Shown: positions 3,001 to 31,331, numbered from the stretch's first letter. The stretch: DNA of 36,894 nt from Elusimicrobiota bacterium (GCA_030637365.1 DAOWGR010000023.1:1-36894); one strand, 5' to 3'. Numbers and translations are program-made. Notes: a model not told the origin generated them from the sequence alone.

Positions 3001-3685
3001 AGCCAAAATAGCGGAAATATTTTGTTCAATTCAAGGCGAGGGTTTATACCTCGGCCAAAAGCAGATTTTTATAAGATTTGCCGGCTGTAATTTATTATGT
3101 GATTATTGCGATGAGCCCAAAGCTTTGCAAAGCGGCAAATTTCCCGCCCAATCTTTCGGGCAGGTTATTAAAAAAATTAAATCGCTGCAAAAAAAAGAAA
3201 ATCCCGAAGCGGTTTCTTTAACCGGCGGGGAGCCGTTGTTGCAGGCGGCTTTCATGGAAAAGCTCTTGCCGATGATTAAAAACACTGGGCTTCAAATTCA
3301 TTTGGAAACAAATGCCGTTTTGGTTGAAGAACTAAAAAGAATAGCTAAAATGACGGATGTTATAGCCGCCGATATAAAATTTCCGAGCTCTACGGGAAAT
3401 TCTTTTTGGACTGAGCATGAGAAATTTTTAAAGATAGCTCCTAAAAAAACTTTTGTTAAGCTTGTCGTCACGAATAAAACGAAAGCGGCGGAAATTAAAA
3501 AAGCGTTTTCAATGGTTAAAAAGGTTTATTCCAAAATACCGGTTTTTTTGCAGCCTGTCACGGAAAAGGGTGAAATAAAAAAACCCGGCAAGGAGTTTTT
3601 TGACAGGGTTGAAAAAATTTCTTCAAATATGGAAATGAAGTATAAAATTTTACCTCAACAACACCCGCTATGGGGAATAAAATAA
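2993..3685 (+). CDS. queE: 7-carboxy-7-deazaguanine synthase (radical SAM)
   Basis: IAEIFCSIQGEGLYLGQKQIFIRFAGCNLLCDYCDE carries the QueE N-terminal motif and the CxxxCxxC radical-SAM cluster. The start overlaps the queC stop (ATGCTTAA). Confidence 0.85.
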   Translation: MLKAKIAEIFCSIQGEGLYLGQKQIFIRFAGCNLLCDYCDEPKALQSGKFPAQSFGQVIKKIKSLQKKENPEAVSLTGGEPLLQAAFMEKLLPMIKNTGLQIHLETNAVLVEELKRIAKMTDVIAADIKFPSSTGNSFWTEHEKFLKIAPKKTFVKLVVTNKTKAAEIKKAFSMVKKVYSKIPVFLQPVTEKGEIKKPGKEFFDRVEKISSNMEMKYKILPQQHPLWGIK

Positions 3686-4011
3686 AGAAGGCGGAAACAG
3701 AAAAAATGAGTGAAGAAACTTTTTTAATTGATTGTCCATTATGCGAAGCCGGGATAGAAGTTGAGAGAAGAACTGGTAAGGTTATAAAACATTGGAAAAA
3801 GCTCAAGCTGAAAAAAGGGGAGGATCCTTTTAAAAAAGCTCTTGAGGGAATCAAGGATAATAAAAATAAACTGGATGATTATTTTTCCGGAGCTCAAGAT
3901 TCCATGGAGAATAAAAAGAAGGAGCTTTTGGATAAATTTGAAAAAGAAAAGAAAAGGATTAAAGATTCCGGCGATACTTCAAAACCGATTAATCCCATGG
4001 ATTTGGATTAA
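3670..4011 (+). CDS. Hypothetical Lys/Glu-rich small protein with a single CPLC motif
   Basis: ORF overlaps the queE end by 16 nt, with an alternative start at ATG 3706. It is followed by a terminator at 4145-4172. No family recognised. Confidence 0.45.
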   Translation: MGNKIKKAETEKMSEETFLIDCPLCEAGIEVERRTGKVIKHWKKLKLKKGEDPFKKALEGIKDNKNKLDDYFSGAQDSMENKKKELLDKFEKEKKRIKDSGDTSKPINPMDLD

Positions 4012-4144: not shown

Positions 4145-4172
4145 GGACCTATATTTATATAGGTCCTTTTTT
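4145..4172 (+). terminator. Rho-independent terminator closing the queCE unit
   Basis: GGACCTATAT-TT-ATATAGGTCC is a perfect 10-bp stem followed by TTTTTT. Confidence 0.7.
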
Positions 4173-4231: not shown

Positions 4232-6133
4232 ATGGCAAACAAGAGGAATTTCATTTTTAGAGCTTTCTTTATGTTTTTTATCTCATTGCAATTGGCCGCG
4301 GGCCAATCGGCTATTGCTTTGGATAAAGATGATGAAATCGGAGATTACAGAGAAAAAATAATAAATACGGCCAGGGAGCTTGGCATTGGCGTTTATGAGG
4401 ATTGGCCCGTTGAATTTGCCTGCGAAGACAATGATTTTAAAAGCGAAGAAATTATTTTTTCAGAACCTGTAAATTTTGGACAAACTTTTGAAGTTCCGCC
4501 GCCGGCGTTCGCATACGCGGATGAAAACAATCAAAACGGCGTTGGCAAAGGGCAAAAATTTAAAATCGGTCAAACGGCGATTAAGCGTCATGATGTTTCC
4601 GCCGGGCGAGCCGCGCCAAAAACAGCGGTTGAAGAGAAGGCCGGAGAATCGTCTTTTTTTAGGAAAGTTTTCACCGGAGTCAAAAATTTCTTTGGTTCAA
4701 TCTTTAAAAAAAATGACCAAACGGAGTCTCAACGGACAAATCGGACTCGGATTTCAAACAAGGTTGAAAAAACCACTTTAGCCGATGAAGTCAAAATATT
4801 TGGATGTCTGGTTACTTTTTTTTACGCTCTTAAAGCCAAAATAATGGACTATGGTTTTTTGCCGTGGACTACCGCCGCTCCGTCATTTGATGAAATATCC
4901 AAAAACGCGATAGCCATGTTAAAAAATTCCGATTTCAAGCAGAGAAAGGCGGGTCAAACATCTTTGCTTAAAGAAGAAGGCTTTATAAAAGAATTGGAAA
5001 TATTATCCGGGGCCAAATTCACTGAAGGAAATACGGTAAAGTTTTTGGTAGACGGCGCGTCTTTCATTGTGAAGTATAAGTTTATAAGAGAGGCGAAAAA
5101 AAGCGTTCATATCGCCAATTACGCTTTTCACGACGATATTACCGGCAATGAAACCGCTGATATGCTTATAGCCAAGAAGAATGAGGGGCTTGATATTAAG
5201 ATAATCGTTGATCATAAAGTCGCTTACATGCTCGGAGGAAAAGTTATTAAACGCATGCAAAAAGCCGGCATAGAAATTTTGCGCTATATGGAATCTGACA
5301 GAACGGGGGATATTTGGCACGCAAAGTTGCAGATAGTGGATGATAAATACGCTATTGTCGGCGGCATGAATTATGGCGATTATTATTCGCATAAAAATCC
5401 CAATGGCCAAAAATGGCGAGATACCGATGTTCTTTATTTTGGCCCGGCCGTAATGGAGACAAAGAAAATCTTTGCCGAAGTTTGGAACAATATGGCCGCG
5501 GAAAAGGGTTTTGAACGCGTGGATATGAATATTCAGCCAAAACCGGATTTTAATGAAGGTTCTTCGCGCGTCGCCGTTGTTTATCAAAATCCTCCGGCGG
5601 CTTCATCCTCGCCGATACTTATGAGTATCCTTAAAGCCATTTACGGCGCGACTGAACGCGTTAACATTGAAAATGCTTATGTTATCGCCATTCCCGCCGT
5701 TAAATATGCCATATTGGATGCCAGAGCGCGAGGTGTTAAAGTAAATGTGCTGACCAATTCAAAGGAAAGCATAGATTGTGACGGTAAACCTATGGCTGAT
5801 GTTATAATTAAAGGACTTAGGCCGTTAATTCGCGCCGGCGTAAAAGTATACTTAAAAAAAGGCGATACGCTTCACAGCAAGTTTATGACTGTTGACGGTG
5901 TTTTTTGTTCCGTCGGCTCCTATAATTTGCATCCCAGGAGTGAAAGATTTGATACGGAATTAAATATAAACATTATCGATTCCGCGAGTGTCGGGCGGCT
6001 TGATTCAATATTCGCCAAAGATTTGGCCAAAGCCATTAAAATAAATTCCGTGGAAGATCTTAATTATAAGTCGAGCTGGTTGTCAAGAATAATAGAAAAA
6101 TATTTCTATGCCATCTTGTCTTCAAACAAATAA
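4232..6133 (+). CDS. Secreted phospholipase D / cardiolipin-synthase-like superfamily protein, copy 1 (two HKD motifs)
   Basis: Signal peptide FIFRAFFMFFISLQLAAGQSAIA. HKD motifs WHAKLQIVDDKYAIVGGMNY and LHSKFMTVDGVFCSVGSYNL. An N-terminal region of about 250 aa has no recognisable family. Confidence 0.85.
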   Translation: MANKRNFIFRAFFMFFISLQLAAGQSAIALDKDDEIGDYREKIINTARELGIGVYEDWPVEFACEDNDFKSEEIIFSEPVNFGQTFEVPPPAFAYADENNQNGVGKGQKFKIGQTAIKRHDVSAGRAAPKTAVEEKAGESSFFRKVFTGVKNFFGSIFKKNDQTESQRTNRTRISNKVEKTTLADEVKIFGCLVTFFYALKAKIMDYGFLPWTTAAPSFDEISKNAIAMLKNSDFKQRKAGQTSLLKEEGFIKELEILSGAKFTEGNTVKFLVDGASFIVKYKFIREAKKSVHIANYAFHDDITGNETADMLIAKKNEGLDIKIIVDHKVAYMLGGKVIKRMQKAGIEILRYMESDRTGDIWHAKLQIVDDKYAIVGGMNYGDYYSHKNPNGQKWRDTDVLYFGPAVMETKKIFAEVWNNMAAEKGFERVDMNIQPKPDFNEGSSRVAVVYQNPPAASSSPILMSILKAIYGATERVNIENAYVIAIPAVKYAILDARARGVKVNVLTNSKESIDCDGKPMADVIIKGLRPLIRAGVKVYLKKGDTLHSKFMTVDGVFCSVGSYNLHPRSERFDTELNINIIDSASVGRLDSIFAKDLAKAIKINSVEDLNYKSSWLSRIIEKYFYAILSSNK

Positions 6134-6150
6134 AAAGAACTTAACAGATT

Positions 6151-8094
6151 ATGGAAAGAATACAGAATATTAATTTGATAACCAAGAGGAATTTTATTTT
6201 CAGAACTTTCTTTATATTTGTTGTTTCATTGCAATTGGCCGCGGGACAATCGGCGATTGCTTTGGATAAAGATGCTGAAATCGGCGATTACAGAGAAAAG
6301 ATAATAAATACGGCCAAGGAGCTTGGCATTGGCGTTTATGAAGATTTGCCCGTTGAATTTGCCGGCGCCACAAGCGGGCGGCGGAATAATTATTCCAAAT
6401 ATGAAAAGTTTGTTTCTTCAAAAACTTTAAATTTTAGAAAAATACCTGAGGTTCCGCCGCCGGCGTTCGCATACGCGAATGAAAATAATCAAAACGGTTT
6501 TGGCAAAGGGAAAGAATTTAAAATTGATCAAACGGAGATTAAGCGTCATGATGTTTCCAATGGGCGCGCGATGCCAAAAACAGCGGCTGAAGAGAAGGCC
6601 GGCGAGCCGTCTTTTTTCGTGAAAGGTTTCACCGGAGTAAGAAATTTCTTTGGTTCAATCTTTAAAAAAAATGACCAAACGGATTCTCGGCGGCAGGTTT
6701 CAAGGAAAATTTCAAAACCGTCTGTCATTGACAATATCAGAGTATGCTGGGGTTATGTATTTAATCTCTTTCACGCCATGAGAGCTGTAATTGTCGATTC
6801 CGGTTTTTTGCCGGGCACTATCGCGGTTCCGTCATTTGATGAAATATCCAAAAACGCCATAGCTATGGTAAAAAATTCCGATTTTAAGCCGAGAAAAGCC
6901 GGACAGCCGTCTTTGCTTAAAGAAGAAGGCTTCATAAAAGAATTGGAAATATTATCCCAAGCGAAGTTTACCGAAGGCAATACGATTAAGTTTCTCATAG
7001 ACGGCAAAGTTTCTTTTGCCATGAAGGATAAACTTATGAAAGAAGCGAAAAAAAGCGTTTATATAGGAGCCTATCTCTTTTTTGACGATATAACCGGTAA
7101 TGAGACCGCCGATATACTTATAGCCAAGAAGAAACAAGGCCTTGATATTAAGATAATTGTTGATCATAAAATCGCTTGTGTGCTCGGAGCAAGAGTTATT
7201 AAACGCATGCAAAAAGCCGGCATAGAAATTTTGCGCTATATGGAATCTGACAGACGGGGGGATTATTGGCATGTAAAATTGTTGATAGTGGATGATAAAT
7301 ACGCTATTGTCGGCGGCATGAATTATGGCGATTATTATTCGCATAAAAATCCCGATGTCCAACAGTGGCGGGATACCGATGTTCTTTATTCCGGTCCGGC
7401 CGTAATGGAGACAAAGAAAATATTTGCCGAAGTTTGGAACAATATGGCCGTTGAGAAGGGGCTTGATTTTAAAAAAATAGATATGGATATTCAGCCAAAA
7501 CCGGATTTTAATGAAGGTTTTTCGCGCGTTGCCGTCGTTTATCAAAATCCTCCGGCGGCTTCATCGTCACCGATACTTTTAAGCATCCTTAAAGCCATTT
7601 ATGGCGCGACGGAGCGCGTTAATATTGAGAATGCCTATTTTATCGCGATTCCCGCTGTTGAGCAGGCTATATTGGATGCCAGAGTGCGAGGAGTGGAGGT
7701 AAATATCCTGACCAATTCCAAGAAAAGTATAAATGAGGGAGCTAAGCAATTCATGTCCGACGCCATACTTAAAAGTCTTCCGCCATTAGTGACGGCCGGC
7801 GTTAATGTGTATATAAAACAAGGAGATAATTTACACAGCAAATTTATGACTGTTGATGGCATTTTCAGCAGTATCGGTTCGTACAATCTTCAACCAAAAT
7901 GCGAAAGATATGAAACGGAATTAAATGTAAATATTATTGATGCCGCAAGTGTCGGGCGGCTTGACGCGGTATTCGCGAAAGACATATCCGAAGCAAAAAA
8001 AATAAATTCAATAGACGAACTTAATCATAATCCCGGTTGGTTGGCGCGAATATTGGAGAAGTATTTCTTTTCCATGCTTTCGCCGGAAAAATAA
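6151..8094 (+). CDS. Secreted PLD-superfamily protein, copy 2
   Basis: Paralogue of copy 1, starting 17 nt after its stop. HKD motifs WHVKLLIVDDKYAIVGGMNY and LHSKFMTVDGIFSSIGSYNL. TTG at 6175 is an alternative start that aligns with the copy 1 start. Confidence 0.85.
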   Translation: MERIQNINLITKRNFIFRTFFIFVVSLQLAAGQSAIALDKDAEIGDYREKIINTAKELGIGVYEDLPVEFAGATSGRRNNYSKYEKFVSSKTLNFRKIPEVPPPAFAYANENNQNGFGKGKEFKIDQTEIKRHDVSNGRAMPKTAAEEKAGEPSFFVKGFTGVRNFFGSIFKKNDQTDSRRQVSRKISKPSVIDNIRVCWGYVFNLFHAMRAVIVDSGFLPGTIAVPSFDEISKNAIAMVKNSDFKPRKAGQPSLLKEEGFIKELEILSQAKFTEGNTIKFLIDGKVSFAMKDKLMKEAKKSVYIGAYLFFDDITGNETADILIAKKKQGLDIKIIVDHKIACVLGARVIKRMQKAGIEILRYMESDRRGDYWHVKLLIVDDKYAIVGGMNYGDYYSHKNPDVQQWRDTDVLYSGPAVMETKKIFAEVWNNMAVEKGLDFKKIDMDIQPKPDFNEGFSRVAVVYQNPPAASSSPILLSILKAIYGATERVNIENAYFIAIPAVEQAILDARVRGVEVNILTNSKKSINEGAKQFMSDAILKSLPPLVTAGVNVYIKQGDNLHSKFMTVDGIFSSIGSYNLQPKCERYETELNVNIIDAASVGRLDAVFAKDISEAKKINSIDELNHNPGWLARILEKYFFSMLSPEK

Positions 8095-8175
8095 GAGTCC
8101 GTTTAAACAGTTTTTATTACCGTGTATGCTTTTTTTCTCCATATAATAACCGGAAGACACATTTGGAGTATTAAT

Positions 8176-10059
8176 ATGACAATCAAGGAAAACTTAATTT
8201 TTAAATTCTTTTTCGTATTTTTTATTTCATTGCGATTGGCCGCGGGACAACCGGCGATTGCTTTGGATAAAGATGATGAATTCGGCGATTATAGAGAAAA
8301 AATAATAAATACGGCCAGAGAGCTTGGCATTGGCGTTTATGAAGATTTGTCCGTTGAATTTGCCGGCGAAGAAATTATTTTTTCAGAACCTGTAAATTTC
8401 GGACAAACTTTTGAAGTTTCGCCGTCGGCATTCGCATACGCGGATGAAAACAATCAGAACGGCTTTGGCAAAGGGCAAGAATTTAAAATCGGTCAAACGG
8501 CGATTAAGCGTTATGATGTTTCCGCCGGGCGCGATATGCCAAAAACAGCGGTTGAAGAGAAGGCCGGAGAATCGTCTTTTTTTCGGGGATTTTTCACCGG
8601 AGTAAGAAATTTCTTTGGTTCAACTTTCAAAAAAAATAATCAAACAGATTCTCAGCGGACCGAGCAGCCTCAGATTCCAAAAAAGAAATCAAGTTCTTCT
8701 TTAGCCGATAAACTCACTGGAGGCATAGCTACTTTTTTTTACACTTTTAAAGCCAAAATAATGGATTCCGGCTTTTTTCCGTGGACCATTGCCGCTCCGT
8801 CATTTGATGAAATATCCAAGAATGCGATAGCTATGGTAAAAAATTCCGGTTTTAAGCCAAGAAAAGTCGGACAGACCTCTTTGCTTAAAGAAGAAGGCTT
8901 TATAAAAGAATTGGAAACATTGACGGGAGCTAAATTTACCGAAGGAAATACAGTGAAGTTTCTAATAGACGGCAAAGCATCTTTTGCTATAAGGGACAAG
9001 CTTATAAGAGAGGCGAAAAAAAGCGTTTATATCGGCACATTTATCTTTCACGATGATATTACCGGCAATGAAACCGCCGATATGCTTGTAGCCAAGAAGA
9101 ATGAGGGAGTTGATGTTAAAATAATTCTTGATCATAAAATTGCTTATATGCTCGGAACAAAAGTTATTAAACGCATGCAAAAAGCCGGAATAGAGATTAT
9201 ACGCCATATGGATTCAAAAAGAACAGGGGATTATTGGCATGTAAAATTGCTGATAGTGGATGATAAATACGCTGTTGTCGGCGGCATAAATTATGGCGAT
9301 TCATATTCTCATAAGGACCCCGACGGTCAAAAATGGCGAGATACCGATGTTTTTTATTCGGGTTTGGCCGTAATGGAGACAAAGAAAATTTTCGCCGAAA
9401 ATTGGAACAGTAAGGTGATGGAAAGTGGGCTTGATTTTGGAAAAGTGGATATGGATATTTCGCCAAGCCCGGGTTTCGATAAAGGTTCGGCTCGCATAGC
9501 GGTGGTTTTCCAAAATCCTCCCAATGCTTCCTCGTCACCGGTGCTTTTTAGTATCCTGAAGGCTATTTATGGCGCCACTGAGCGCGTTAATATTGAGAAT
9601 GCTTATTTTATCGCAATTCCGGCTGTCAGTCAGGCGATATTGGATGCCAAAGCGCGAGGCGTCAAAGTCAATATCCTGACCAATTCCGAGAAAACCATAG
9701 ACGGTGATTGTGACTATATGGCGAATTCCATAATCAAAGGACTTATACCGTTGATTCATGAAGGCATCAATGTATACTTAAAAAAAGGCAATACGCTTCA
9801 CAGTAAATTTATGACTGTTGACGGCGTTTTCTGCTCTATCGGTTCATATAATTTGCGCCCCAGGAGTGAAAGATACGATACGGAACTGAATGTCAATGTT
9901 ATAGACCATATATCCGTTAGGAAACTTGAGGAGGTGTTTGCTAAAGATATATCTGAAGCGACAAAAATAAATTCGGTGGAAGATCTTAATTATAAGCCGA
10001 CTTGGCTGTCAAAAATAATGGAAAAATATTTTTACGCCATGCTTTCGCCGGAAAAATAA
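8176..10059 (+). CDS. Secreted PLD-superfamily protein, copy 3
   Basis: ATG at 8176 is preceded by GGAG (8165-8168) and aligns with the starts of copies 1 and 2. HKD motifs WHVKLLIVDDKYAVVGGINY and LHSKFMTVDGVFCSIGSYNL. The ORF-track start at 8122 is an upstream extension. Confidence 0.85.
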   Translation: MTIKENLIFKFFFVFFISLRLAAGQPAIALDKDDEFGDYREKIINTARELGIGVYEDLSVEFAGEEIIFSEPVNFGQTFEVSPSAFAYADENNQNGFGKGQEFKIGQTAIKRYDVSAGRDMPKTAVEEKAGESSFFRGFFTGVRNFFGSTFKKNNQTDSQRTEQPQIPKKKSSSSLADKLTGGIATFFYTFKAKIMDSGFFPWTIAAPSFDEISKNAIAMVKNSGFKPRKVGQTSLLKEEGFIKELETLTGAKFTEGNTVKFLIDGKASFAIRDKLIREAKKSVYIGTFIFHDDITGNETADMLVAKKNEGVDVKIILDHKIAYMLGTKVIKRMQKAGIEIIRHMDSKRTGDYWHVKLLIVDDKYAVVGGINYGDSYSHKDPDGQKWRDTDVFYSGLAVMETKKIFAENWNSKVMESGLDFGKVDMDISPSPGFDKGSARIAVVFQNPPNASSSPVLFSILKAIYGATERVNIENAYFIAIPAVSQAILDAKARGVKVNILTNSEKTIDGDCDYMANSIIKGLIPLIHEGINVYLKKGNTLHSKFMTVDGVFCSIGSYNLRPRSERYDTELNVNVIDHISVRKLEEVFAKDISEATKINSVEDLNYKPTWLSKIMEKYFYAMLSPEK

Positions 10060-10114
10060 GAGGCGCGGAAGTTCGAAAGCGCGAAATACCGGATAGAAAC
10101 GGAATTATATAAAT

Positions 10115-10150
10115 AAATCGCAAATCCCCGGGATTTGCGATTTGTTTTTT
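10115..10150 (+). terminator. Rho-independent terminator after the PLD triplet
   Basis: AAATCGCAAATCCC / GGGATTTGCGATTT is a near-perfect palindrome followed by G-TTTTTT. Confidence 0.75.
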
Positions 10151-10329
10151 GCAGTGATTTCGTTCTGTTATTTAATTGTTATTTGCAATTTATACATTGA
10201 TGTTTTTTATTTTTATAACTTGCATATTGTTTTTTTGATTTGTCGTTTGCCGCTATTTACTAATTACTGTTTACCGGTTGCTGGTTGTTCTTGTGGCAAT
10301 ATTCCCCTAAAAAACATAAAATATACTCT

Positions 10330-10881
10330 ATGCATGGCGATATAAAAGAAGTGCTTATAACCGAAGAACAAATTAAGGTTCGCGTCAAAGAGCTTGCTGA
10401 AAAAATATCCAAAGACTATAAAGGGCGATGCCCGGTTTTTGTCGGTGTTTTAAAAGGATGCGTGTTTTTTCTTTCAGACCTTTTAAAACACATAACGATT
10501 GATTGCAATGTTGATTTTATGGGTCTTTCTTCTTACTCCGGCACGCAATCAACGGGAATTGTAAGAACAGTCTTGGATTTAAAAGAAAGCATAGAGGATA
10601 AGGATGTTATAATCGTGGAGGATATAGTGGATTCAGGCCTTTCAATGGAATATCTTCTTCATAATTTTAAGAGCAGGCGTCCGAGGTCGGTTAAAATATG
10701 CACTATGCTTGATAAGCCCTCCGCCAGAAAGGTGCGTGTTCCGGTTAAATACGCGGGCTTTGAAATACCCGAGAAATTTGTAGTCGGTTATGGTTTGGAT
10801 TTTAATGAACTTTACCGTAATTTGCCGTATATCGGAGTGATTAAAAAATCAGCTGTTGAAAAGGATAAGAAATGCCGCTAA
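10330..10881 (+). CDS. hpt: Hypoxanthine(-guanine) phosphoribosyltransferase
   Basis: MHGDIKEVLITEEQIKVRVKELAEKIS..., PRPP-binding VIIVEDIVDSGLSM, C-terminal VVGYGLDFNELYRNLPYIGV. The conserved hpt-ftsH pairing is present. Confidence 0.9.
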   Translation: MHGDIKEVLITEEQIKVRVKELAEKISKDYKGRCPVFVGVLKGCVFFLSDLLKHITIDCNVDFMGLSSYSGTQSTGIVRTVLDLKESIEDKDVIIVEDIVDSGLSMEYLLHNFKSRRPRSVKICTMLDKPSARKVRVPVKYAGFEIPEKFVVGYGLDFNELYRNLPYIGVIKKSAVEKDKKCR

Positions 10882-12707
10882 AAAAAATCTCAAATAAAAT
10901 GCCCTTGAATAAAAATACCAGACAAATCCTCTTTTGGATTATTACTTTTCTTCTTTTTATCACGCTTTATCATAACTTTAAAAATCTGGAAACCGTGAAA
11001 CAAATTCCTTATTCGGAATTCAAACAAAAGTTGAAATCCAAAAAAATAATAAAAGTGGTTGTTTCGCCGAATTTGATAAAGGGAGAGATGCAGGATAGCG
11101 GCATGGATGTTAAATTCAGAACTTTGCCTCTTCCCGATTCAAAACTCATTGAAGATATGGAAGCGAGCGGAATTAAATCCTTTTCCGGCGAACCGGATAG
11201 AAGCTGGGTTATAAGTTTGCTTTTAAATGTGGGCTGGATTTTTCTATTTATTTTTTTGTGGTGGTTTTTATTCTTGAGACAATCTCAAATGGGCGGCAAG
11301 GGGGCCATGAGTTTTGGGCGTTCGCGCGCGAAAGAACAGGATTTAAAAAAACAAAAAATCACTTTTAAAGATGTTGCCGGTTGTGATGAGACCAAAGAAG
11401 AATTGAGCGATATCGTGGATTATCTTAAAAATCCAAAAAAATACAAACAATTGGGCGGCGTTTTGCCCAAGGGCATGCTCTTATTCGGCCCTCCGGGAAC
11501 GGGCAAAACTTTGCTTGCCAGAGCGGTCGCCGGAGAAGCTCAAGTTCCGTTTTATACTTCGTCAGGTTCCGAGTTTGTTGAGATGTTTGTCGGCGTGGGG
11601 GCTTCTCGCGTCAGGGATTTGTTTGAAAAAGCCAAAAAAAACGCTCCCGCCATTATATTTGTTGACGAACTGGATGCGGTAGGCAGGCGCAGATTTGCCG
11701 GCATTGGCGGCGGACATGATGAAAGAGAGCAGACCTTAAATCAGCTTTTGGTTGAGCTTGACGGTTTTGAGGGCAATGAAAATGTTATTTTAATAGGCGC
11801 GACCAACAGGCCGGATGTTCTTGATCCCGCGTTGCTTAGGCCGGGGCGTTTTGACAGGCGCATAAATGTTCCCGCGCCGGATATCATGGGCAGAGAGGAA
11901 ATTCTTAAGGTTCACGCTAAAAAAATAAAACTTTCTCCCGATATTGATCTTGGAATCATAGCAAGAAGAACTCCCGGTTTTGTCGGAGCCGATTTGGCCA
12001 ATATTATAAACGAATCAGCCATATTCGCGGCCAGAAAAAACAAAAAATTCGTCGAGATGGAAGATATTGAGGAGTCCATAGAAAGAGTGATAGCGGGTCC
12101 GCAGAGAAAAACAAGAATAATATCCGAGAAAGAGAGAAAGGTCATAGCTTTTCACGAAGCGGGACATGCTCTGATTGCCAAACTTTTGCCTCATACCGAT
12201 CCCGTGCATAAAATTTCCATAGTTCCCAGAGGGCCCGCTTTAGGCTATACCCTTCAATTGCCTGTTGAAGATAAGTATTTAACCACCAAAAGCGAGATTA
12301 TCAATAAGCTTTCAATTCTTTTGGGCGGCAGAGCCGCCGAAGAAATAGTATTTGATGAAATTACAACCGGAGCGCAGGATGATTTGTCCAAGGTGACCAA
12401 TTATGCGCAAAAGATGGTTCTTGAATTCGGGATGAGTGAAAAAATAGGCCTTATCACTTTAAGAAAAGATGAATCTGAAGTATTTCTGGGAAGGGATATT
12501 GCCAAACAGCCGGGTTATTCCAATGAAATGGCTAAGAATGTTGATGATGAGATTAAACGAATAGTCAGCGAGTGTTATGTGAAAGCCAAGGAAATGTTGA
12601 CTGATGAAAGACATTTGCTAAATTCTCTGGCCGAAAAGCTTTTGGAAAAAGAAATTCTGGAATCAGATGAAATTGATTTAATAGTTAATGGCAATGCCGC
12701 CGCATAG
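10872..12707 (+). CDS. ftsH: ATP-dependent zinc metalloprotease FtsH
   Basis: Two TM segments, Walker A GPPGTGKT, Walker [31 protein letters not shown], Zn site HEAGHA. Confidence 0.95.
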
Positions 12708-12745
12708 GGCGCAGTTGCTTACCGCCGAATTCAAGGATTATATCA

Positions 12746-13522
12746 ATGTATATACAATACGCGAAAAATATCATAGATATATTTGTCGTTTATTGTATCG
12801 TTTATCACCTGATACTTCTTATTAAGGGCACCAGAGCCATGCAAGTAATATGGGGAGTTTTTATTCTTGCCATTATTACAGCCATAGCCAAGCTTTTAAA
12901 TTTATCCGCCACAATGTGGATGATGCAGCAATTTTGGCTTGCCGGTATTTTTCTTTTAATCGTGGTGTTTCAGCCTGAAATACGCTCCGCCCTCGCCAAT
13001 ATAGGAGCTAATCCTCTGGGAAGAATTTTAATGCCTCAGGAATATAAATTTATAAAAGAGATGATGAGCGCTTTAAAGACTGCCTCGGATGACAGAACGG
13101 GAATGATTATCGTTCTTGAGCAGGATATGGGGCTTAAAGACATTATGGATACGGGCATTATGATAAGCGGAGAAGTAAGCAAAGAGCTTTTGCTCACAAT
13201 ATTTTTTAATAAGACTCAACTGCATGACGGAGCGGTAATAATAAGCAAAAACCGTTTAATCGCGGCCGGATGCATATTGCCTTTAACCGAACAAAAAGAG
13301 CTTTCAATGATGCTTGGCATGAGGCATAGAGCGGCGCTCGGCCTCAGCGAAATTTGTGATTCCATTATAATTGTGGTGTCCGAGGAGACGGGACAAATTT
13401 CTTTGGCGAGAAACGGCAAGCTTCAGCAATCGGTGGATATTGATAAGCTTGAGAATATGCTTTATACTCTTTACCGTTCAAAATCTGAAAAAACCTTGCT
13501 TAGAAGGCAGTCAAGACAATGA
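12746..13522 (+). CDS. cdaA: Diadenylate cyclase CdaA (DisA_N domain, three N-terminal TM helices)
   Basis: LHDGAVIISKNRLIAAGCILPL, GMRHRAALGLSE and DSIIIVVSEETGQISLA are DAC-domain signatures. Confidence 0.9.
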   Translation: MYIQYAKNIIDIFVVYCIVYHLILLIKGTRAMQVIWGVFILAIITAIAKLLNLSATMWMMQQFWLAGIFLLIVVFQPEIRSALANIGANPLGRILMPQEYKFIKEMMSALKTASDDRTGMIIVLEQDMGLKDIMDTGIMISGEVSKELLLTIFFNKTQLHDGAVIISKNRLIAAGCILPLTEQKELSMMLGMRHRAALGLSEICDSIIIVVSEETGQISLARNGKLQQSVDIDKLENMLYTLYRSKSEKTLLRRQSRQ

Positions 13523-13617
13523 ATCTTCCTGAATTGATAACCAAAAACTGGCAGATTAAAATTCTATCGCTCATAATAGCCGTTCTTATTTGGTATTTTA
13601 AGCTCAGCGGTGTTTAA
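13519..13617 (+). pseudogene. cdaR: 32-codon stub resembling the N-terminal membrane anchor of CdaR/YbbR
   Basis: ATGA overlap with the cdaA stop. MNLPELITKNWQIKILSLIIAVLIWYFKLSGV* resembles the typical YbbR-family N-terminus (xNxxLKxLSLxxAxxLW). No YbbR repeat domains follow. The next gene starts at 13624. Confidence 0.45.
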
Positions 13618-13623
13618 GCGAAT

Positions 13624-15501
13624 ATGGTTAAAAAAGTGCGTAAAAAAAACATCATTTTTTTTGGAATATTTTTATTGATTGGAGTTTTGGGCGCAAATGC
13701 CGCGGATAGTCCCACTATCCGCTTATCGACCGAAGGGCGATCAAAAAAAACAAGCGGCGCCAATAGAGCCGCAAGCGGGTGGCGGGACAGTTTTAATCCT
13801 GCCGGCTGGCAAACCAATAATAATTTTCCTTTAATAGGCTCGCCAAAAGCCAAAAAAGGCGGAACCATGCGTTTTTTTTGGCGCAGTTATCCCGCCACAT
13901 TAAGAACAAACGGCCCTAACGCGAATTTTTTTACCATTCAGGAAATTCAAAGCGTGGTTTATGAATCTTTAATTGATATTCATCCCGAGACAATGGAATA
14001 TATTCCCGGCCTTGCCGATTATTGGCGCGTGTCCCCAGATAAAAGAAAATTTTCATTTCATATAAATCCGAAAGCCGCATGGGCGGACGGAAGTCCGGTT
14101 ACGGCCGAGGATATTGTGGCCACTTGGGAATTTCGGACTCGCGCCGATATAAAAGATCCATATTCGGTTATGATGTGGGCCGATAATTTTGAAAAACCCA
14201 TAGCTGAAAGCGAATATGTTGTTTCGGTTAAAACAAAAAAACTTAATTGGCGTTTGTTTTTATATTTCGGCAGAATGGATATATATTCCGCCAAAGAAAT
14301 GAAAAAACTTGCCGGAAAAGAATATCTTAGGGACTATAATTGGAAGATGCAAATGGGTTCGGGTCCTTATGAATTAAAATCCGAAAACATTAAAAAAGGG
14401 CATTCTTTAATTATTACAAGGCGTGAGGATTATTGGGCCGCCAATGAGCGAAGAAATATCGGCGTTAATAATTTTGACGCGGTATCCTGGATTGTAATTT
14501 TGGATGAAGAATTGGCGTTTGAAAAATTTAAAAAAGGGGAGATTGATTTTTATTATGTTTCAAGGGCGCAGAGATGGGCAAATGAATGTGATTTTGACAA
14601 AATAAAAAAAGGCTGGATACAAAAGCGCAAAATTTATACTCAAGCTCCGGAAAGTTTTTTGGGTTTTGCTTTCAATATGAGAAAGCCGCCTTTTGATAAT
14701 CGCGACGTGAGAAAGGCTTTTTCTTTTCTTCTAAATCGCGAAAAGCTTTTAGACAAGCTTTTTTTTAATGAATACGCCTATATAGACACTTATTTTCCCG
14801 GCGGAGAATGGGGAAATCCAAATAATCCGAAAGTGCGACATAATCCGAGAAGAGCCGCCAAACTTCTTAAAAAGGCGGGATGGAAGAACAGGAATAAAGA
14901 GGGCTGGCTTATTAAAGACGGAAAAATTTTTGAACTGACGCTTGAATACGGGTTTAATGGCTGGACCAAGATTCATAAGGTTATCAAAGAAGATATGAAA
15001 AAAGCCGGAATTAAGCTTAATCTCAAATTGATTGATCCCAGAACCTTGATGAAGAAGGTAAATGAACGCAATTTTACCTTGCATTATAAACTATGGGGCG
15101 GCTTCCTGTTTCCAAATCCCGCCGTTATGTGGTCGTCTGAGCTTGCCGATGAAAAATATAATAATAATTTACCCGGATTTAGAAATGAGAAAGTTGACGC
15201 GCTATGCGCGAAATATGACCGCGCGTTTGACAGAGAAGAGCAGAAAAAAATCATAAAGAAGATTGATGCCGCGATTTTTAGGGAATATCCTTATGCGCTT
15301 TCATGGTATACCGATTTTAATCGTATTCTTTATGCCAATAAATTCGGTCATCCGAAAACATATTTTTCAAAGATTGGAGATTTTAGAGACATAAAAACAC
15401 TTTGGTGGCTGGACGCGCCCAAAGAAAAAGCTTTGTCTGAGGCTGTAAAAGAAAATAAGAGTTTGCCGGTTGGAAAAATCATCCAAAAGCCATGGAAATA
15501 G
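13624..15501 (+). CDS. yejA: ABC transporter substrate-binding protein, family 5, YejA-like, copy 1 (carries palindromic-element insert after signal peptide)
   Basis: Signal peptide IIFFGIFLLIGVLGANA, about 600 aa, paralogue of 15760-17541. Lies in an operon with YejB/YejE-like permeases. Confidence 0.85.
   Translation: MVKKVRKKNIIFFGIFLLIGVLGANAADSPTIRLSTEGRSKKTSGANRAASGWRDSFNPAGWQTNNNFPLIGSPKAKKGGTMRFFWRSYPATLRTNGPNANFFTIQEIQSVVYESLIDIHPETMEYIPGLADYWRVSPDKRKFSFHINPKAAWADGSPVTAEDIVATWEFRTRADIKDPYSVMMWADNFEKPIAESEYVVSVKTKKLNWRLFLYFGRMDIYSAKEMKKLAGKEYLRDYNWKMQMGSGPYELKSENIKKGHSLIITRREDYWAANERRNIGVNNFDAVSWIVILDEELAFEKFKKGEIDFYYVSRAQRWANECDFDKIKKGWIQKRKIYTQAPESFLGFAFNMRKPPFDNRDVRKAFSFLLNREKLLDKLFFNEYAYIDTYFPGGEWGNPNNPKVRHNPRRAAKLLKKAGWKNRNKEGWLIKDGKIFELTLEYGFNGWTKIHKVIKEDMKKAGIKLNLKLIDPRTLMKKVNERNFTLHYKLWGGFLFPNPAVMWSSELADEKYNNNLPGFRNEKVDALCAKYDRAFDREEQKKIIKKIDAAIFREYPYALSWYTDFNRILYANKFGHPKTYFSKIGDFRDIKTLWWLDAPKEKALSEAVKENKSLPVGKIIQKPWK
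13710..13787 (+). repeat. 78-nt palindromic element (copy B), translated in frame within yejA-like copy 1
   Basis: Arms TCCCACTATCCGCTT (13710-13724) and AAGCGGGTGGCGGGA (13773-13787): 12 Watson-Crick pairs, 2 G-U pairs, 1 mismatch. It has the same A8 run (13743-13750) and the same internal order as copy A. It is absent from the paralogue at 15760. Confidence 0.85.
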
Positions 15502-22473: not shown

Positions 22474-23121
22474 CTATTTCTGAATTTTAAATATATTTTT
22501 TATGTATTGCCAATGCCAATGGATGTGAAACAGAGATATCATAAACATCGCTATGCCCGCTTCCGTATGCCATAGCATGATATTAAAAGGCAGTTTAATC
22601 CTTATGCCGTAATTTATCATTATAACCAGCAGAATTCCGAGCAAGCCGGATATTAAAAATGTGAGCAATAGGGCAAAATTCCAAAATTTAAAGTGGGTTT
22701 TGGCTTCTATGATTTTTTTCTTATACAGGATAATGCCGATAAGGTACAAAAGAAGCAAAAACGCGCTTATGGGAAAAAGATGATATGGCTTTTTGCCGGA
22801 GGTTTTTTTAATGGCGGCTTTTTTTGTAGTTTTAACGGTTTTTTTGGGGGCAATCGGCGGTTTTATGTTTTGCGATGTTTGAGCCGGGATGTTCTTTTTC
22901 CGCTTGTTGTTTTCTGATATCTGTTTTCTGCTTTCCACTTTGTTAACAATATCTTTTATCTGAGGGTTTGATTGAATATAATCGCATATTCCGTCATTAT
23001 CCTTATCCACGCACATGCCGCATGGCGCGTCGCATTCAGTCAGCCCTTTAGGGCAGGCGCTTTCCCCGAATACCGTTAAAGGCAATGAGCATAATATCAT
23101 GGCGAATGCTATTTTTTTCAT
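22474..23121 (-). CDS. Hypothetical Cys-rich membrane protein (signal peptide, CxxxxxxC..PCGMC..DGICD module, Lys-rich linker, three His-containing TM helices)
   Basis: MKKIAFAMILCSLPLTVFG signal peptide. The C-terminal TM block with WHTEAGIAMFMISLFHIHWHW is reminiscent of DUF4405/cytochrome-b-like membrane domains, but I am not certain of this. Confidence 0.6.
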   Translation of the reverse strand: MKKIAFAMILCSLPLTVFGESACPKGLTECDAPCGMCVDKDNDGICDYIQSNPQIKDIVNKVESRKQISENNKRKKNIPAQTSQNIKPPIAPKKTVKTTKKAAIKKTSGKKPYHLFPISAFLLLLYLIGIILYKKKIIEAKTHFKFWNFALLLTFLISGLLGILLVIMINYGIRIKLPFNIMLWHTEAGIAMFMISLFHIHWHWQYIKNIFKIQK

Positions 23122-23183
23122 ATTGTTTCTTAAAGCCTAAATAGAGTTTACAAATTTTAGATTGATTCGTGAAAATAGTCGGA

Positions 23184-24686
23184 CTAAGAATTAAGGAGTG
23201 TTTTTTTGCGTTCCGTCCAAAGGGTGAAATTGAAAGTGGAGCCTTCGTTTAGCGCGCTTTCCGCCCATAGTCGGCCTTTGTGTCGTTCTATTATGCGTTG
23301 GACCGTACTCAGACCTATGCCGGTTCCGGGAAATTCAGACAGAATGTGAAGGCGTTGAAAGGGTTTGAATATCTTGTTTACATATTTCATGTCAAAGCCG
23401 CAACCATTGTCTTTTACGAAATAAATATTTTGGTGTTCTTTTTTCATCATTCCGAATTCTATCGCGGGTTTTTCGGTTTTTTTCGTGAATTTCCACGCAT
23501 TTTCCAGCAGATTCTCAAGAGATTCCATCAGAAGACCGGGATCTCCGGTTGTTTCAATGCCTTCCGCCACAATAATATTTACATGCCGCGCGGGTTCGCT
23601 TTCTTGCAGGCGTTCAATGATTTTCTTTGCCAGAGCCGTCATATCCACGGTCTTGCAGTCCATTTCCTGGCGTATGATACTGGAGAGTTTGAGCAAATTG
23701 TCTATAATTTCCGCCATATGTTGGCAGTTGTTCTGCACTTTTCCGATATATGCTCTGCCGGTATCGTCCAAGACATTTGAATATTCCTGTTCCAGAAAGG
23801 TGATAAAGCCATCCATGCGTCTTAACGGGCCGCGTAAATCGTGCGACGCGGAATAGGTAAAAGCTTCCAATTCTTTATTCGCCATTTTTAATTCGGCCGT
23901 TCTCTCCGTTACATTGTCTTCCAGGTCATTGCGGGCTTTGATAAGTTCACTTGTTGCCGTGTCGCGTTCACGGCTCCTTTCCCGAAGATTTTTAAGCATG
24001 TAATTAAAGCTTTCGGCCAGTATTCCGATTTCATCGCCGCGGTTTATATCGGTTTTTAAAGAATAGTCTTGATTATGGGCGATACTTCTGGTTAATTCGG
24101 CCAATTGCAGTATGGGCCGCGATATCAGCCTTTGGACGCGCGTGGTCAGGATGAAGACAATTATGGCCACGCAAAATGCCAATATGATGATTAGTTTTAC
24201 GCGGTCCCAAATTTTTTCCGCCAAGAGCGCGGTGGAAACGCACATATGAAGTGTGCCGTAATATTTACCTTTATAAGTCATCGGTTCATAAACAGCAAGG
24301 TGCCCTTTTGTGAAGAGAGTATAAGTTTCTTCCCGCGCAATTGGTGTTTTCAGTTTTTTTCGCTCGAACTTTTTTCCATCGCGAGCGTAGGCGGCAAAAA
24401 TATTTCCGCGAATGTCGTAAATTGCCGCATGCTCTATGTTTTTTATAAGAGAAAGTTTTTCAAGCGCTTGCGAGGCTTCATCTTCGTATTCGAAAACCAG
24501 ATCTCCAATACAGTATTCCGCCGTTATTTTGGCGTTTAGAATGGAATCTTCTATCAATTCTTTTCGGAAATTACGGGTATCAAGCGCCGTTATTACGGCA
24601 AAACCGAGCACTAACGCGAAGAAAGCCACCGCCATTATGAGAGATGTTAGTTTGGCGTTTACCGACAAATTTTCAAGAGATTTCAT
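23184..24686 (-). CDS. Sensor histidine kinase (2 TM + periplasmic loop, HAMP, HisKA, HATPase_c)
   Basis: HAMP region RPILQLAELTRSIA...GDEIGILAESFNYMLKNL, H-box FTYSASHDLRGPLRRM, N/G boxes NLLENAWKF, DNGCGFD and GTGIGLS. The start overlaps the upstream stop (ATGA). Confidence 0.9.
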   Translation of the reverse strand: MKSLENLSVNAKLTSLIMAVAFFALVLGFAVITALDTRNFRKELIEDSILNAKITAEYCIGDLVFEYEDEASQALEKLSLIKNIEHAAIYDIRGNIFAAYARDGKKFERKKLKTPIAREETYTLFTKGHLAVYEPMTYKGKYYGTLHMCVSTALLAEKIWDRVKLIIILAFCVAIIVFILTTRVQRLISRPILQLAELTRSIAHNQDYSLKTDINRGDEIGILAESFNYMLKNLRERSRERDTATSELIKARNDLEDNVTERTAELKMANKELEAFTYSASHDLRGPLRRMDGFITFLEQEYSNVLDDTGRAYIGKVQNNCQHMAEIIDNLLKLSSIIRQEMDCKTVDMTALAKKIIERLQESEPARHVNIIVAEGIETTGDPGLLMESLENLLENAWKFTKKTEKPAIEFGMMKKEHQNIYFVKDNGCGFDMKYVNKIFKPFQRLHILSEFPGTGIGLSTVQRIIERHKGRLWAESALNEGSTFNFTLWTERKKTLLNS

Positions 24687-25327
24687 TTTGTGTCACCGCC
24701 GTACACCATTGTCGCCAAGCGTAAAAGTTTTGAATTGATGACAAGGCCGCTTTTGCGGGCGCCGCCGAGATTTATATTGAAACGGATATGTTTACTTTTT
24801 TTGTAAAGAGCGATATGCGTCCCGCGCCGAGCCAGTTTTTTACCGTCTCCCACGATAAGTATCGGCCTATTGCCGGTTATGGAAAGTATGTCAGCCAGCC
24901 GCTTGTTTTCGTTTTTTGCTATAAAAAGCATATGACAGTGTTCAAGAGTGTCTTCGTTTTTCATTTGGCGCAATATTACACGGCGATTTTTTATTTTCCT
25001 GGTCTTTGCCAGTTTTTTGAGATAAGGACCGATTAAGGTTTTTCCAATCAGAGTTATGATAAAAGGTTCGTTTGGATCTGAAAAAGTTTTTTCGGGCCAG
25101 TCAATAAATTGGGTTATTCTTACCAGAAATTCGGCTTTTACCTGGTATTCAAAAAATTTATGCGACGAGGCGGTTGCCAAATCTCGGTTTGAGCCGGCGA
25201 TTAGCCCGAACAATATAAGAAAAGTCGTTAGGATTATTCGCCCGATTGACGGTTTGTTTGGAATGGTTGTTTTTGCTGAAAGATTTTGAAACAAAATGGA
25301 TTTTAGTCGGCTAAGCAAGTTTGTCAT
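24683..25327 (-). CDS. YfiR-like periplasmic protein (DUF4154)
   Basis: EYQVKAEFLVRITQFIDWP...HCHMLFIAKNE...ILIVGD...IRFNINLGGARKSGLVINSKLLRLA follows the DUF4154 pattern end to end. Confidence 0.8.
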   Translation of the reverse strand: MTNLLSRLKSILFQNLSAKTTIPNKPSIGRIILTTFLILFGLIAGSNRDLATASSHKFFEYQVKAEFLVRITQFIDWPEKTFSDPNEPFIITLIGKTLIGPYLKKLAKTRKIKNRRVILRQMKNEDTLEHCHMLFIAKNENKRLADILSITGNRPILIVGDGKKLARRGTHIALYKKSKHIRFNINLGGARKSGLVINSKLLRLATMVYGGDTK

Positions 25328-25379
25328 AGTCTTTTTTTAATAGTTCCTCATGGTCCGGGATAGAATGAAAATATGAAAT

Positions 25380-27611: not shown

Positions 27612-27739
27612 AAAATCTCCTGTTAAAAACAGATGGCGCTATTGCCTGTGTTTTCGTTTACGGATTTCATTCGCTTTTATCCGTCTGTGGTCTCGTCCGC
27701 GTTGTGAAGCCGCGGAAGGACAAATAGACCGGGCGAATT

Positions 27740-28195
27740 TTATTTATACGCGTTTTTAGGCATCATTTTGACAATTAAAAACCAGAAATTTTCCATCGTT
27801 CTCATTACATTTTCAAAATCCTCCATTTTGACCGGCTTGGAGATAAAACAGTTCGCGTGATGATTATAGGTTTTTATGACATCTTCATCGGCTTTGGAAG
27901 AGGTCAGTATTATGACGGGAATAGTTCTTAATTCAGGGTCTTCTTTTATTTCCGTGAGCACTTCATGGCCGTCTTTTTTTGGGAGGTTTAAATCCAGAAG
28001 AATAATGTCCGGCCTGGGAGAATTCATATATTCCCCTTCTTTGCGCAGATATGCCATGGCCTCCACTCCGTCCGCGGCCACACTGATATTATTTTTTACT
28101 TTAGCCTTTTTGAATACCTGCAGGATAAAAAATGTGTCATCATCATTATCCTCCACCAGAAGTATTTCAATAGGTTCATGGTTGATTTTATCCAT
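27740..28195 (-). CDS. Stand-alone CheY-like response-regulator receiver
   Basis: EILLVEDNDDDTFF, DIILLDLNLPKKDG, PVIILTSS and CFISKP. ATG at 28195 is preceded by GGGGG. The ORF-track start at 28222 is an upstream extension. Confidence 0.9.
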   Translation of the reverse strand: MDKINHEPIEILLVEDNDDDTFFILQVFKKAKVKNNISVAADGVEAMAYLRKEGEYMNSPRPDIILLDLNLPKKDGHEVLTEIKEDPELRTIPVIILTSSKADEDVIKTYNHHANCFISKPVKMEDFENVMRTMENFWFLIVKMMPKNAYK

Positions 28196-28302
28196 GGTGC
28201 CCCCAAATTTTAAATTTATCATCCGGCGTTATTTTCAGCGCCAAACGATTGTTGCGTCGCGATTAAAACAATAATTTCCCTCACACATATTTTACTTCAA
28301 AT

Positions 28303-30569: not shown

Positions 30570-31331
30570 ATGGGGAATAAACCTTTAATTTTGGCTCACA
30601 GAGGAGCGCTGCTAAATGCGCCCGAAAATACGCTTAAGGCGTTTATGAGGGCTTTTGAAAATGAAGCCGATGGCATTGAATGCGATATCAGAATTACCAA
30701 AGACGGCGAGTTTATAGCTTTTCATGATGAAACCACCGAACGCGTTGCGGGCGTAAATTGGCAGATAAAGAAAACAAAATACGCTCAATTAAGAAACATT
30801 GAAGTTTTTGGCAAAGAACCCATAGCTCATTTGGACGATATTTTAAAACTTCTTTTAAAATGGCCGGATAAATTATGTTTTTTTGAAGTGTGCTTTGATG
30901 ACTCCGATGATGTTGAACGCCTGACTCAAAAAGTAAAAGAGGCCGGTCTCGCGAAGCGTTCCTATATTTTGACTTTTTCAAACAGAAAACATTTATTAAA
31001 AAGAGCTAAAGAAGCCGCGCCTGAAATGGGCATATCGGTTATGCCGCTATTGCCGACAAAAATTATTCAGACCGCTCGCAAAGCCGGCGCTAATTCCGTT
31101 TGCGCGGGCTGGGTTGATTTGCCGGGAGCGAAACAATTGTTTACAATGTCGGCAAAACTTTATAATTTTAAAAAACAAATCAGAGACGCGAAGAAACTTG
31201 ATATTTTTGTAAGCGGCGGAGTGGCCAATACCCATAAAGAAATTGAATGGTTTTGCGAGCAAGGCATTGAAGGCGTATGGACTGATGATGTCTTGCTGGC
31301 TTTGGAAGTGATACGAGGCTCTGAGAAATAA
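30570..31331 (+). CDS. glpQ: Glycerophosphodiester phosphodiesterase
   Basis: ILAHRGALLNAPENTLKAF, ADGIECDIRITKDGEFIAFHDETTER (the HRG / E-D / HD GDPD motifs). Confidence 0.85.
   Translation: MGNKPLILAHRGALLNAPENTLKAFMRAFENEADGIECDIRITKDGEFIAFHDETTERVAGVNWQIKKTKYAQLRNIEVFGKEPIAHLDDILKLLLKWPDKLCFFEVCFDDSDDVERLTQKVKEAGLAKRSYILTFSNRKHLLKRAKEAAPEMGISVMPLLPTKIIQTARKAGANSVCAGWVDLPGAKQLFTMSAKLYNFKKQIRDAKKLDIFVSGGVANTHKEIEWFCEQGIEGVWTDDVLLALEVIRGSEK

Follow-up and report, generated by a model that had tools for sequence, protein, structure and literature searches.

Three tandem genes for cardiolipin synthase-like enzymes with predicted Sec-type export signals at a conserved Elusimicrobia locus

We analysed three consecutive genes for phospholipase D (PLD) superfamily proteins in a 36,894-nucleotide stretch of DNA from an Elusimicrobiota bacterium (DAOWGR010000023.1, positions 1-36894, assembly GCA_030637365.1), hereafter the window. 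An earlier reading of this DNA from the sequence alone (the original prediction) had placed here three same-strand paralogues separated by 17 and 81 nt and bounded by terminators at 4145 and 10115. This arrangement is borne out: the three open reading frames (ORFs) lie one after another on the same strand and encode proteins with 74-76% pairwise identity, both gaps are correct, and a hairpin with a T-run occurs at either end (4145-4166, and the 13-bp palindrome at 10115-10143). The array and its boundaries are as follows.

4232..6133 (+): paralogue 1, a predicted exported, cardiolipin synthase (Cls)-like enzyme of 633 amino acids (aa) with two HKD motifs (ORF call, Pfam, curated profiles and structural model)
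6151..8094 (+): paralogue 2, 647 aa with ATG 6151 as start, 639 aa with TTG 6175
8176..10059 (+): paralogue 3, 627 aa; the ORF as a whole spans 8122-10059
4145..4166 (+): terminator-like hairpin with a 9-bp stem and T-run, at the end of the upstream unit queC-queE-small ORF
10115..10143 (no strand): palindromic hairpin of 13 bp with T-runs on both sides, read from the sequence as a bidirectional terminator closing the three-gene unit

The true start of paralogue 3 is almost certainly ATG 8176, which has GGAG 9 nt upstream, aligns with the starts of the other two genes and is also the start in an independent gene call (P0001). Paralogue 2 may begin at TTG 6175, in line with the starts of the other two genes and within the conserved TATTAAT-start context seen in paralogue 3. 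Since the hairpin at 4145-4166 ends the queC-queE-small ORF unit, the array starts its own transcript and, given the spacers and the terminators at both ends, the three PLD copies look like a single, co-transcribed unit. Rfam matched nothing in the whole window but a tRNA-Ser; by this search the region ahead of the array has no leader RNA. The array is not an assembly artefact, because contig L001, assembled independently from the same organism and matching the window at 99.8% identity over 12.9 kb, preserves the order copy 2 (3' part), copy 3, hpt; the ~78% DNA identity between copies and the unequal spacers also rule this out. Contig L001 itself opens with 100 nt (1-100) identical to copy 1 and then runs on as copy 2, and is therefore broken or chimeric at the copy 1/2 repeat. 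Two ORFs antisense to copies 1 and 2 (5003-5587 and 6952-7545, both on the minus strand, 194 and 197 aa) are alike only since they lie opposite homologous coding sequence, and were discarded as genes.

Each of the three proteins has two intact H-x-K-x4-D-x6-G-[GS]-x-N (HKD) motifs, in agreement with the original prediction and with Pfam, where PLDc_2 and PLDc each match every protein twice (PLDc_2 with 128-131 bits versus a cut-off of 27). Both motifs are invariant in 31/31 sequences of the family alignment from which an AlphaFold2 model was also built. The model is confident from about residue 215 on, where it has a two-lobed PLD fold, and Foldseek matched it to human PLD1/2, PssA, Streptomyces PLD and 7e0m (E 1e-18 to 1e-21). 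With both motifs and a two-lobed alpha/beta fold, these proteins belong to the two-HKD class of the phospholipase D superfamily. A structural search of this kind had been suggested for the core and the N-terminus alike; it placed the core in the PLD fold and found no match for the N-terminus. Sequence and Foldseek searches of the PDB gave only generic PLD-fold matches, none of which fell in the N-terminal region, and no solved bacterial Cls was nearer than PssA. The catalytic features are located as follows.

4874..6130 (+): copy 1 two-lobed PLD catalytic module, residues ~215-633, predicted local distance difference test score (pLDDT) mostly >85
5318-5371 and 5873-5926 (+): copy 1 HKD1 and HKD2, from motif search
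7270-7323 and 7834-7887 (+): copy 2 HKD1 and HKD2, from motif search
9238-9291 and 9799-9852 (+): copy 3 HKD1 and HKD2, from motif search

The best curated match for all three was the cardiolipin synthase family TIGR04265 (149-155 bits, E 1e-43 to 1e-45; cut-off 290 bits), followed by PRK12452 and ClsB (profile NF008427, 107-116 bits versus a cut-off of 281). In the TIGR04265 alignment, residues ~218-645 of the protein correspond to positions 73-481 of the 483 in the profile. In direct comparison, identity to the Escherichia coli enzymes was 23-25% for ClsA, about 24% for ClsB and 21-24% for ClsC, with BLASTP E values of 1e-19 to 1e-22 for ClsA and ClsB and 1e-13 to 1e-15 for ClsC. Given these scores below the curated cut-offs and the low identity to the E. 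coli proteins, the window proteins are a distinct branch of Cls-like PLD enzymes, equivalent to no named family and not members of ClsA, ClsB, ClsC or ClsO, the last being a recently described Acinetobacter baumannii enzyme considered below.

Ahead of the catalytic module, the proteins have the following features (copy 1 unless indicated).

4232..4318 (+): predicted signal peptide, residues 1-29, with n-region MANKRN, a hydrophobic core, Gly at -6 and A-I-A at -3 to -1
4322..4402 (+): conserved acidic helix motif DKDDEIGDYREKIINTARELGIGVYED, residues 31-57, from family alignment and homology search
4418..4786 (+): variable linker, residues ~63-185, predicted disordered from alignment and model
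4655..4714 (+): Phe/Lys-rich amphipathic helix FFRKVFTGVKNFFGSIFKKN within the copy 1 insertion, hydrophobic moment 0.65, mean hydrophobicity 0.20, predicted surface-seeking
6613-6672 and 8578-8637 (+): equivalents of the Phe/Lys helix in copies 2 and 3, by hydrophobic moment
4802..4864 (+): family-wide amphipathic/hydrophobic helix GCLVTFFYALKAKIMDYGFLP, from alignment, KD19 hydrophobicity and model

The Sec-type signal ending in AAGQ(S/P)AIA that had been proposed was found in 3/3 proteins. The N-terminal segment is the sole one at membrane-helix hydrophobicity in all three copies (KD19 1.67-1.86; usual threshold ~1.6), and the acidic stretch LDKDDE directly follows the signal core and A-I-A. 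A signal-like N-terminus is a family-wide feature: among 77 members with usable starts, a positive n-region was present in 67 and a small-x-small site after the core in 71. No Cys occurs in the signal, and the first Cys in the three copies is at residue 64, 199 or 512, so they are not lipoproteins. The positive n-region and acidic flank predict an N-in/C-out orientation by the positive-inside rule, cleaved or not. Altogether, the arrangement is that of a cleavable Sec signal of the signal peptidase I type (Sec/SPI), from which cleavage and a final location beyond the inner membrane would be expected. The organism has an outer membrane, as indicated by the TonB-dependent receptor encoded in the window.

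The sequence blocks originally quoted for the N-terminal region are all present, with SPSAFAYADENNQNG in place of PPP in copy 3, as is the amphipathic stretch. The accompanying notion of an unassigned 250-aa N-terminal domain does not hold, in view of the low pLDDT, an unconserved linker, the lack of outside relatives for residues ~75-178 and Cls homology from ~218. The region is not a domain; it consists of the signal peptide, a 27-aa acidic helix motif, a linker predicted to be disordered and an amphipathic helix. In the AlphaFold2 model, pLDDT is <50 at residues 23-38, 47-146 and 153-186, and the N-terminal helices (3-29, 37-49, 141-158 and 183-206) are isolated. When residues 1-260 were searched with HMMER against 1.84 billion representative proteins, only nine matches were returned, all of them same-lineage fragments or family members aligned to residues 1-74 or 178-260 only, and residues ~75-178 were covered by none but the same-lineage fragments. 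As all nine are from the protein's own lineage or family, the region contains no nameable domain. Pfam searches of the full proteins (E<=0.1) likewise gave nothing N-terminal to the PLD lobes but a spurious PASTA match (E 0.06-0.07, below cut-off).

The acidic motif, x-Y-x-E-K-I-x-x-T-A-x-x-L-G-I-x-V-Y-E-D-F-P-V, occurs in most close family members, is found only in this PLD family and possibly has a docking or sorting role. The linker that follows is unconserved in the family alignment, with 18-88 aa (median 44) and a median of 21.5% proline in relatives, and with 118-129 aa and 4-5% proline in the three window proteins, where it is longer because of an ~85-aa insertion (copy 1 residues ~92-183). 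Judged from sequence comparison, this insertion is a lineage-specific orphan. It includes the Phe/Lys helix, FF[RV]xxFTGV[KR]NFFGSxFKKN, which has a moment of 0.52-0.65 and a mean hydrophobicity of 0.18-0.31 and lies above the Eisenberg surface-helix line in 3/3 copies. The second, family-wide helix (consensus G-Y-x-x-T-x-[WY]-x-x-x-x-A-Q-I-x-D-x-G-x-x-P-W) sits where ClsA has its second membrane helix, here ~150 residues past the N-terminal segment; with KD19 values of 1.44, 1.16 and <1.0 in copies 1-3, it is too weak to span a membrane. The conserved catalytic part opens at P-S-F-E-E-I-S.

For gene context, we scanned one genome per GTDB species and mapped the proteins flanking the array onto the best 80 of 122 relatives, which gave 79 distinct loci. 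The order queC-queE-~101-113 aa ORF-PLD-hpt-ftsH-cdaA was found in ~45 loci, and the PLD gene is a core syntenic gene of Elusimicrobiales. The loci among the matches listed are all from Elusimicrobiota metagenome-assembled genomes (MAGs) or MAGs labelled 'bacterium', many of them with two or three dispersed loci. At the syntenic site most have one PLD copy and six have two (L002, L003, L018, L020, L026 and L042); three occur in the window only, so that the triplet does not recur in these relatives. Nor does the contrast once drawn with 'single-copy' Cls enzymes stand, for E. coli has three and Elusimicrobia MAGs commonly carry two or three dispersed paralogues of this family. The possibility that the orthologues are ordinary single-copy synthases, raised at the same time, is right in that the gene is mostly single at the site and wrong in that it is no ordinary ClsA, since all carry the export signal and tether. 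The array has as neighbours queC, queE, hpt, ftsH, cdaA and an oligopeptide ABC transporter, and no secretion-system, immunity, defence or mobile-element gene lies among its neighbours in the window, as had been stated for the first two.

The small ORF between queE and PLD, of 113 aa in the window (3670-4011, plus strand), keeps this position in the ~45 loci with 50-91% identity; it has a C-P-L-C motif, a Lys/Glu-rich tail and no Pfam match, and is parted from the array by the terminator. A second Elusimicrobia clade (L056-L081; for example, L062 and L070) has signal-peptide-bearing Cls-like PLDs, 39-45% identical to the window proteins, with different and often Ala/Pro-rich N-terminal extensions of 150-250 aa. 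Its genes lie elsewhere in the genome, often within MAGs that have the syntenic copy too.

Over the catalytic region, the window copies share 72-75% identity among themselves, against 63-66% with copy A of L003, their closest relative, and 51-55% with the copy B type. Being closer to one another than to either L003 copy, they arose in this lineage from a copy-A-type gene and are monophyletic, lineage-specific tandem duplicates. Synonymous divergence (dS) between copies is 0.57-0.63 with a nonsynonymous to synonymous ratio (dN/dS) of 0.25-0.28, that is, purifying selection, and each copy departs from only 5-7 of the 123 family-conserved positions compared; all three appear functional. The divergence is uneven, with dS of 0.17-0.4 over much of the 5' third versus about 1.0 in the C-terminal lobe, and copies 1 and 2 share the following tract.

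5242..5640 versus 7194-7593 (+): copy 1/copy 2 tract with 91-95% nucleotide identity, against ~78% overall, probably from gene conversion

The copies have thus probably been homogenised in part by gene conversion. In L003, the two tandem PLD genes (10001-11662 and 12950-14638) are 92% identical over their first 66 residues, which comprise the signal and acidic motif, versus 52% in the catalytic part, so that the same 5' homogenisation occurs elsewhere; its restriction to the 5' end points to concerted evolution or a strong shared constraint. Between these two L003 genes lies another (11703-12740, plus strand), with no equivalent in the window, encoding a signal peptide-bearing protein of 345 aa in which HEAT repeats occur together with a permuted papain-like YaeF/YiiX (Peptidase_C92) domain. 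The triplication in the window is ordinary gene-family dynamics: a core gene has been duplicated locally, and the copies do not form a battery of effectors.

We compared this family with named systems. ClsO, described from A. baumannii and other Proteobacteria, is a cardiolipin synthase and a surface-exposed outer-membrane lipoprotein in which an extended linker joins the lipid anchor to the catalytic domain; its homologues in Acinetobacter and Neisseria were earlier misread as secreted PLD toxins (PMC12846801). The window family resembles it as a two-HKD Cls-like enzyme with an N-terminal export signal, an extended linker before a globular catalytic domain and a predicted extracytoplasmic placement in a diderm. 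It differs in that all listed ClsO homologues are of the Sec/signal peptidase II (SPII) type with a lipobox Cys, whereas the window family is of the Sec/SPI type without Cys. Moreover, ClsO is ClsC-like, whereas ClsC is, of the three E. coli enzymes, the one least similar to the window family. The ClsO dataset comprised Sec/SPII proteins only and no Elusimicrobia (PMC12846801). With ClsA, whose catalytic domain can face the periplasm in E. coli (PMC11698083), the family shares TIGR04265 as the best-scoring curated family, with the whole catalytic region and both HKD motifs aligned, but without reaching its cut-off. Also, the N-terminus of ClsA is a pair of strongly hydrophobic helices with a short loop between them, whereas that of the window proteins comprises a single signal-like segment, then a tether of 60-160 aa and a weak amphipathic helix. 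ClsB and ClsC are likewise two-HKD cardiolipin synthases without membrane helices and at a similar sequence distance, but lack an export signal (PMC12846801; E. coli N-termini), and the ClsB cut-off is not reached either.

Among PLD enzymes other than cardiolipin synthases, Streptomyces PLD (1v0r/1f0i, engineered variants) is also a Sec-secreted, soluble, two-HKD protein of similar fold (Foldseek E ~1e-18) that carries out transphosphatidylation, but its sequence similarity is marginal (profile E 1e-3 to 1e-5) and it lacks the tether and amphipathic-helix architecture. Type VI secretion effectors of the Tle5/PldA kind adjoin VgrG/Hcp and immunity genes and have no Sec signal, whereas the window genes have a Sec-type signal and stand among housekeeping genes. 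Nuc/NucT enzymes have a single HKD domain of ~155-180 aa and dimerise, unlike the two HKD lobes here, and NucT models score 20-26 bits versus cut-offs of 211-297. DISARM DrmC scores 33-50 bits versus 133, and no drmA, drmB or methyltransferase genes neighbour the window locus.

On balance, we lean slightly towards the view that the three proteins are Sec-exported, non-lipoprotein Cls-like transphosphatidylases that would remodel envelope lipids, a role already proposed in the original prediction and plausible here. The N-terminal signal would carry the protein across the inner membrane and either be cleaved after AIA or be retained as an N-in/C-out anchor. The short conserved acidic helix and the flexible linker, proline-rich in most relatives, would tether the enzyme, and the amphipathic helix, of which this lineage has two, would hold the catalytic module at a membrane surface. 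There, the two HKD motifs would form one active site for phosphatidyl transfer between envelope phospholipids, for example from phosphatidylglycerol (PG) and PG, or PG and phosphatidylethanolamine, to cardiolipin. Cardiolipin synthesis of the PLD type does not draw on nucleotide energy, and going by the chemistry of the family the reaction would therefore be feasible outside the cytoplasm. The three copies would be co-transcribed isoenzymes, all kept by selection.

Some points weigh against this reading. Curated cardiolipin-synthase models all score at about half their cut-offs, and the product may therefore not be cardiolipin; a hydrolytic PLD activity may also be compatible with the sequence. 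The low N-terminal pLDDT, for its part, could stem partly from a shallow alignment there and not from true disorder. Hydrolysis is central to a different explanation, which we regard as unlikely though the most serious of the rivals, that these are secreted phospholipases D that digest foreign membranes or scavenge phosphate or headgroups from host, prey or competitor lipids, their copies multiplied to raise dosage or widen the range of substrates. A signal peptide followed by no further membrane anchor would suit such exoenzymes, for which tandem expansion is common, and the fold match to the secreted Streptomyces PLD is about as good as to synthases; more distant signal-bearing relatives occur in predatory Bdellovibrionota, and a gene for a glycerophosphodiester phosphodiesterase (GDPD) lies 20 kb away. 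Nevertheless, by sequence the proteins stand much nearer to cardiolipin synthases (E 1e-43) than to PLD of the Streptomyces type (PDB profile E ~1e-5), and secretion-system, immunity and mobile-element genes are absent from the neighbours of the array. The fixed housekeeping position in ~45 Elusimicrobia loci, usually with one copy, fits a core cellular enzyme better than an effector and speaks against the host or competitor targeting originally suggested. In addition, the 'secreted PLD toxins' of Acinetobacter and Neisseria proved to be ClsO synthases (PMC12846801).

Less probable still is an ordinary inner-membrane ClsA-like synthase with two uncleaved helices, a cytoplasmic catalytic module and an unusually long periplasmic loop. 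The TIGR04265 alignment does start just past the second hydrophobic stretch, much as the catalytic part of ClsA comes after its second helix, both segments are helical in the AlphaFold2 model and the second reaches a KD19 of 1.44 in copy 1; this is, however, below ~1.6, as in 3/3 copies, K, K and D break up the segment, whose hydrophobicity is lower still in relatives, and the first segment has a textbook A-x-A site with Gly at -6, of a type conserved across the family. An exported nuclease of the PLD superfamily (Nuc/NucT-like) or an anti-phage PLD (DISARM DrmC-like) is highly improbable. Nuc enzymes are periplasmic and weak domain-level matches do exist (NucT E 1e-4 to 1e-6, DrmC E 1e-8 to 1e-13), but these fall well short of the curated cut-offs and extend over one HKD lobe only, the full-length match being to cardiolipin synthases, and DISARM partner or other defence genes are absent from the neighbours of the array. 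A defence role was also rejected on PADLOC results, which were weak, single-lobe DrmC/Mko matches only.

Returning to the exported transphosphatidylase, the Elusimicrobia family as a whole resembles the recently recognised cardiolipin synthases that act outside the cytoplasm, of which it would be a non-lipoprotein equivalent. Until ClsO (2026; Proteobacteria lipoproteins only), phospholipid synthesis in diderms was thought to be confined to the inner membrane. More tentatively, and at odds we would put well short of even, Elusimicrobiales and some Bdellovibrionota might make or remodel some of their phospholipids in the periplasm or at the outer membrane, using a Sec-exported, non-lipidated Cls-like enzyme with a docking helix, proline-rich tether and amphipathic helix. 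Extracytoplasmic cardiolipin synthesis would then have an origin separate from the proteobacterial ClsO lipoproteins, and the three copies with the Phe/Lys helix would be isoenzymes specialised for different lipids or membranes. A family of exported, non-lipidated Cls-like enzymes fixed in synteny throughout the phylum would bring extracytoplasmic lipid synthesis to a deep-branching and mostly uncultured group with a different anchoring solution, and the natural series of one, two and three copies with short to long tethers would offer a test of how such enzymes reach the membrane. Our search of the literature on Elusimicrobia lipids or PLD found nothing relevant.

Elsewhere in the window, a GDPD gene (30570-31331, plus strand), ~20 kb downstream of the array, could act on lipid headgroup products, and nothing ties it to the array. 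Two adjacent ORFs on the minus strand (32220-34343 and 34344-36674, of 707 and 776 aa) match no Pfam family at E<=1e-5. Finally, a cluster at 22474-28222 (minus strand) encodes the TonB-dependent receptor, a YfiR/HmsC-like protein, a CHASE8-HAMP histidine kinase, a response regulator and a 215-aa ORF without a Pfam match, and resembles a YfiBNR-like envelope-signalling arrangement.

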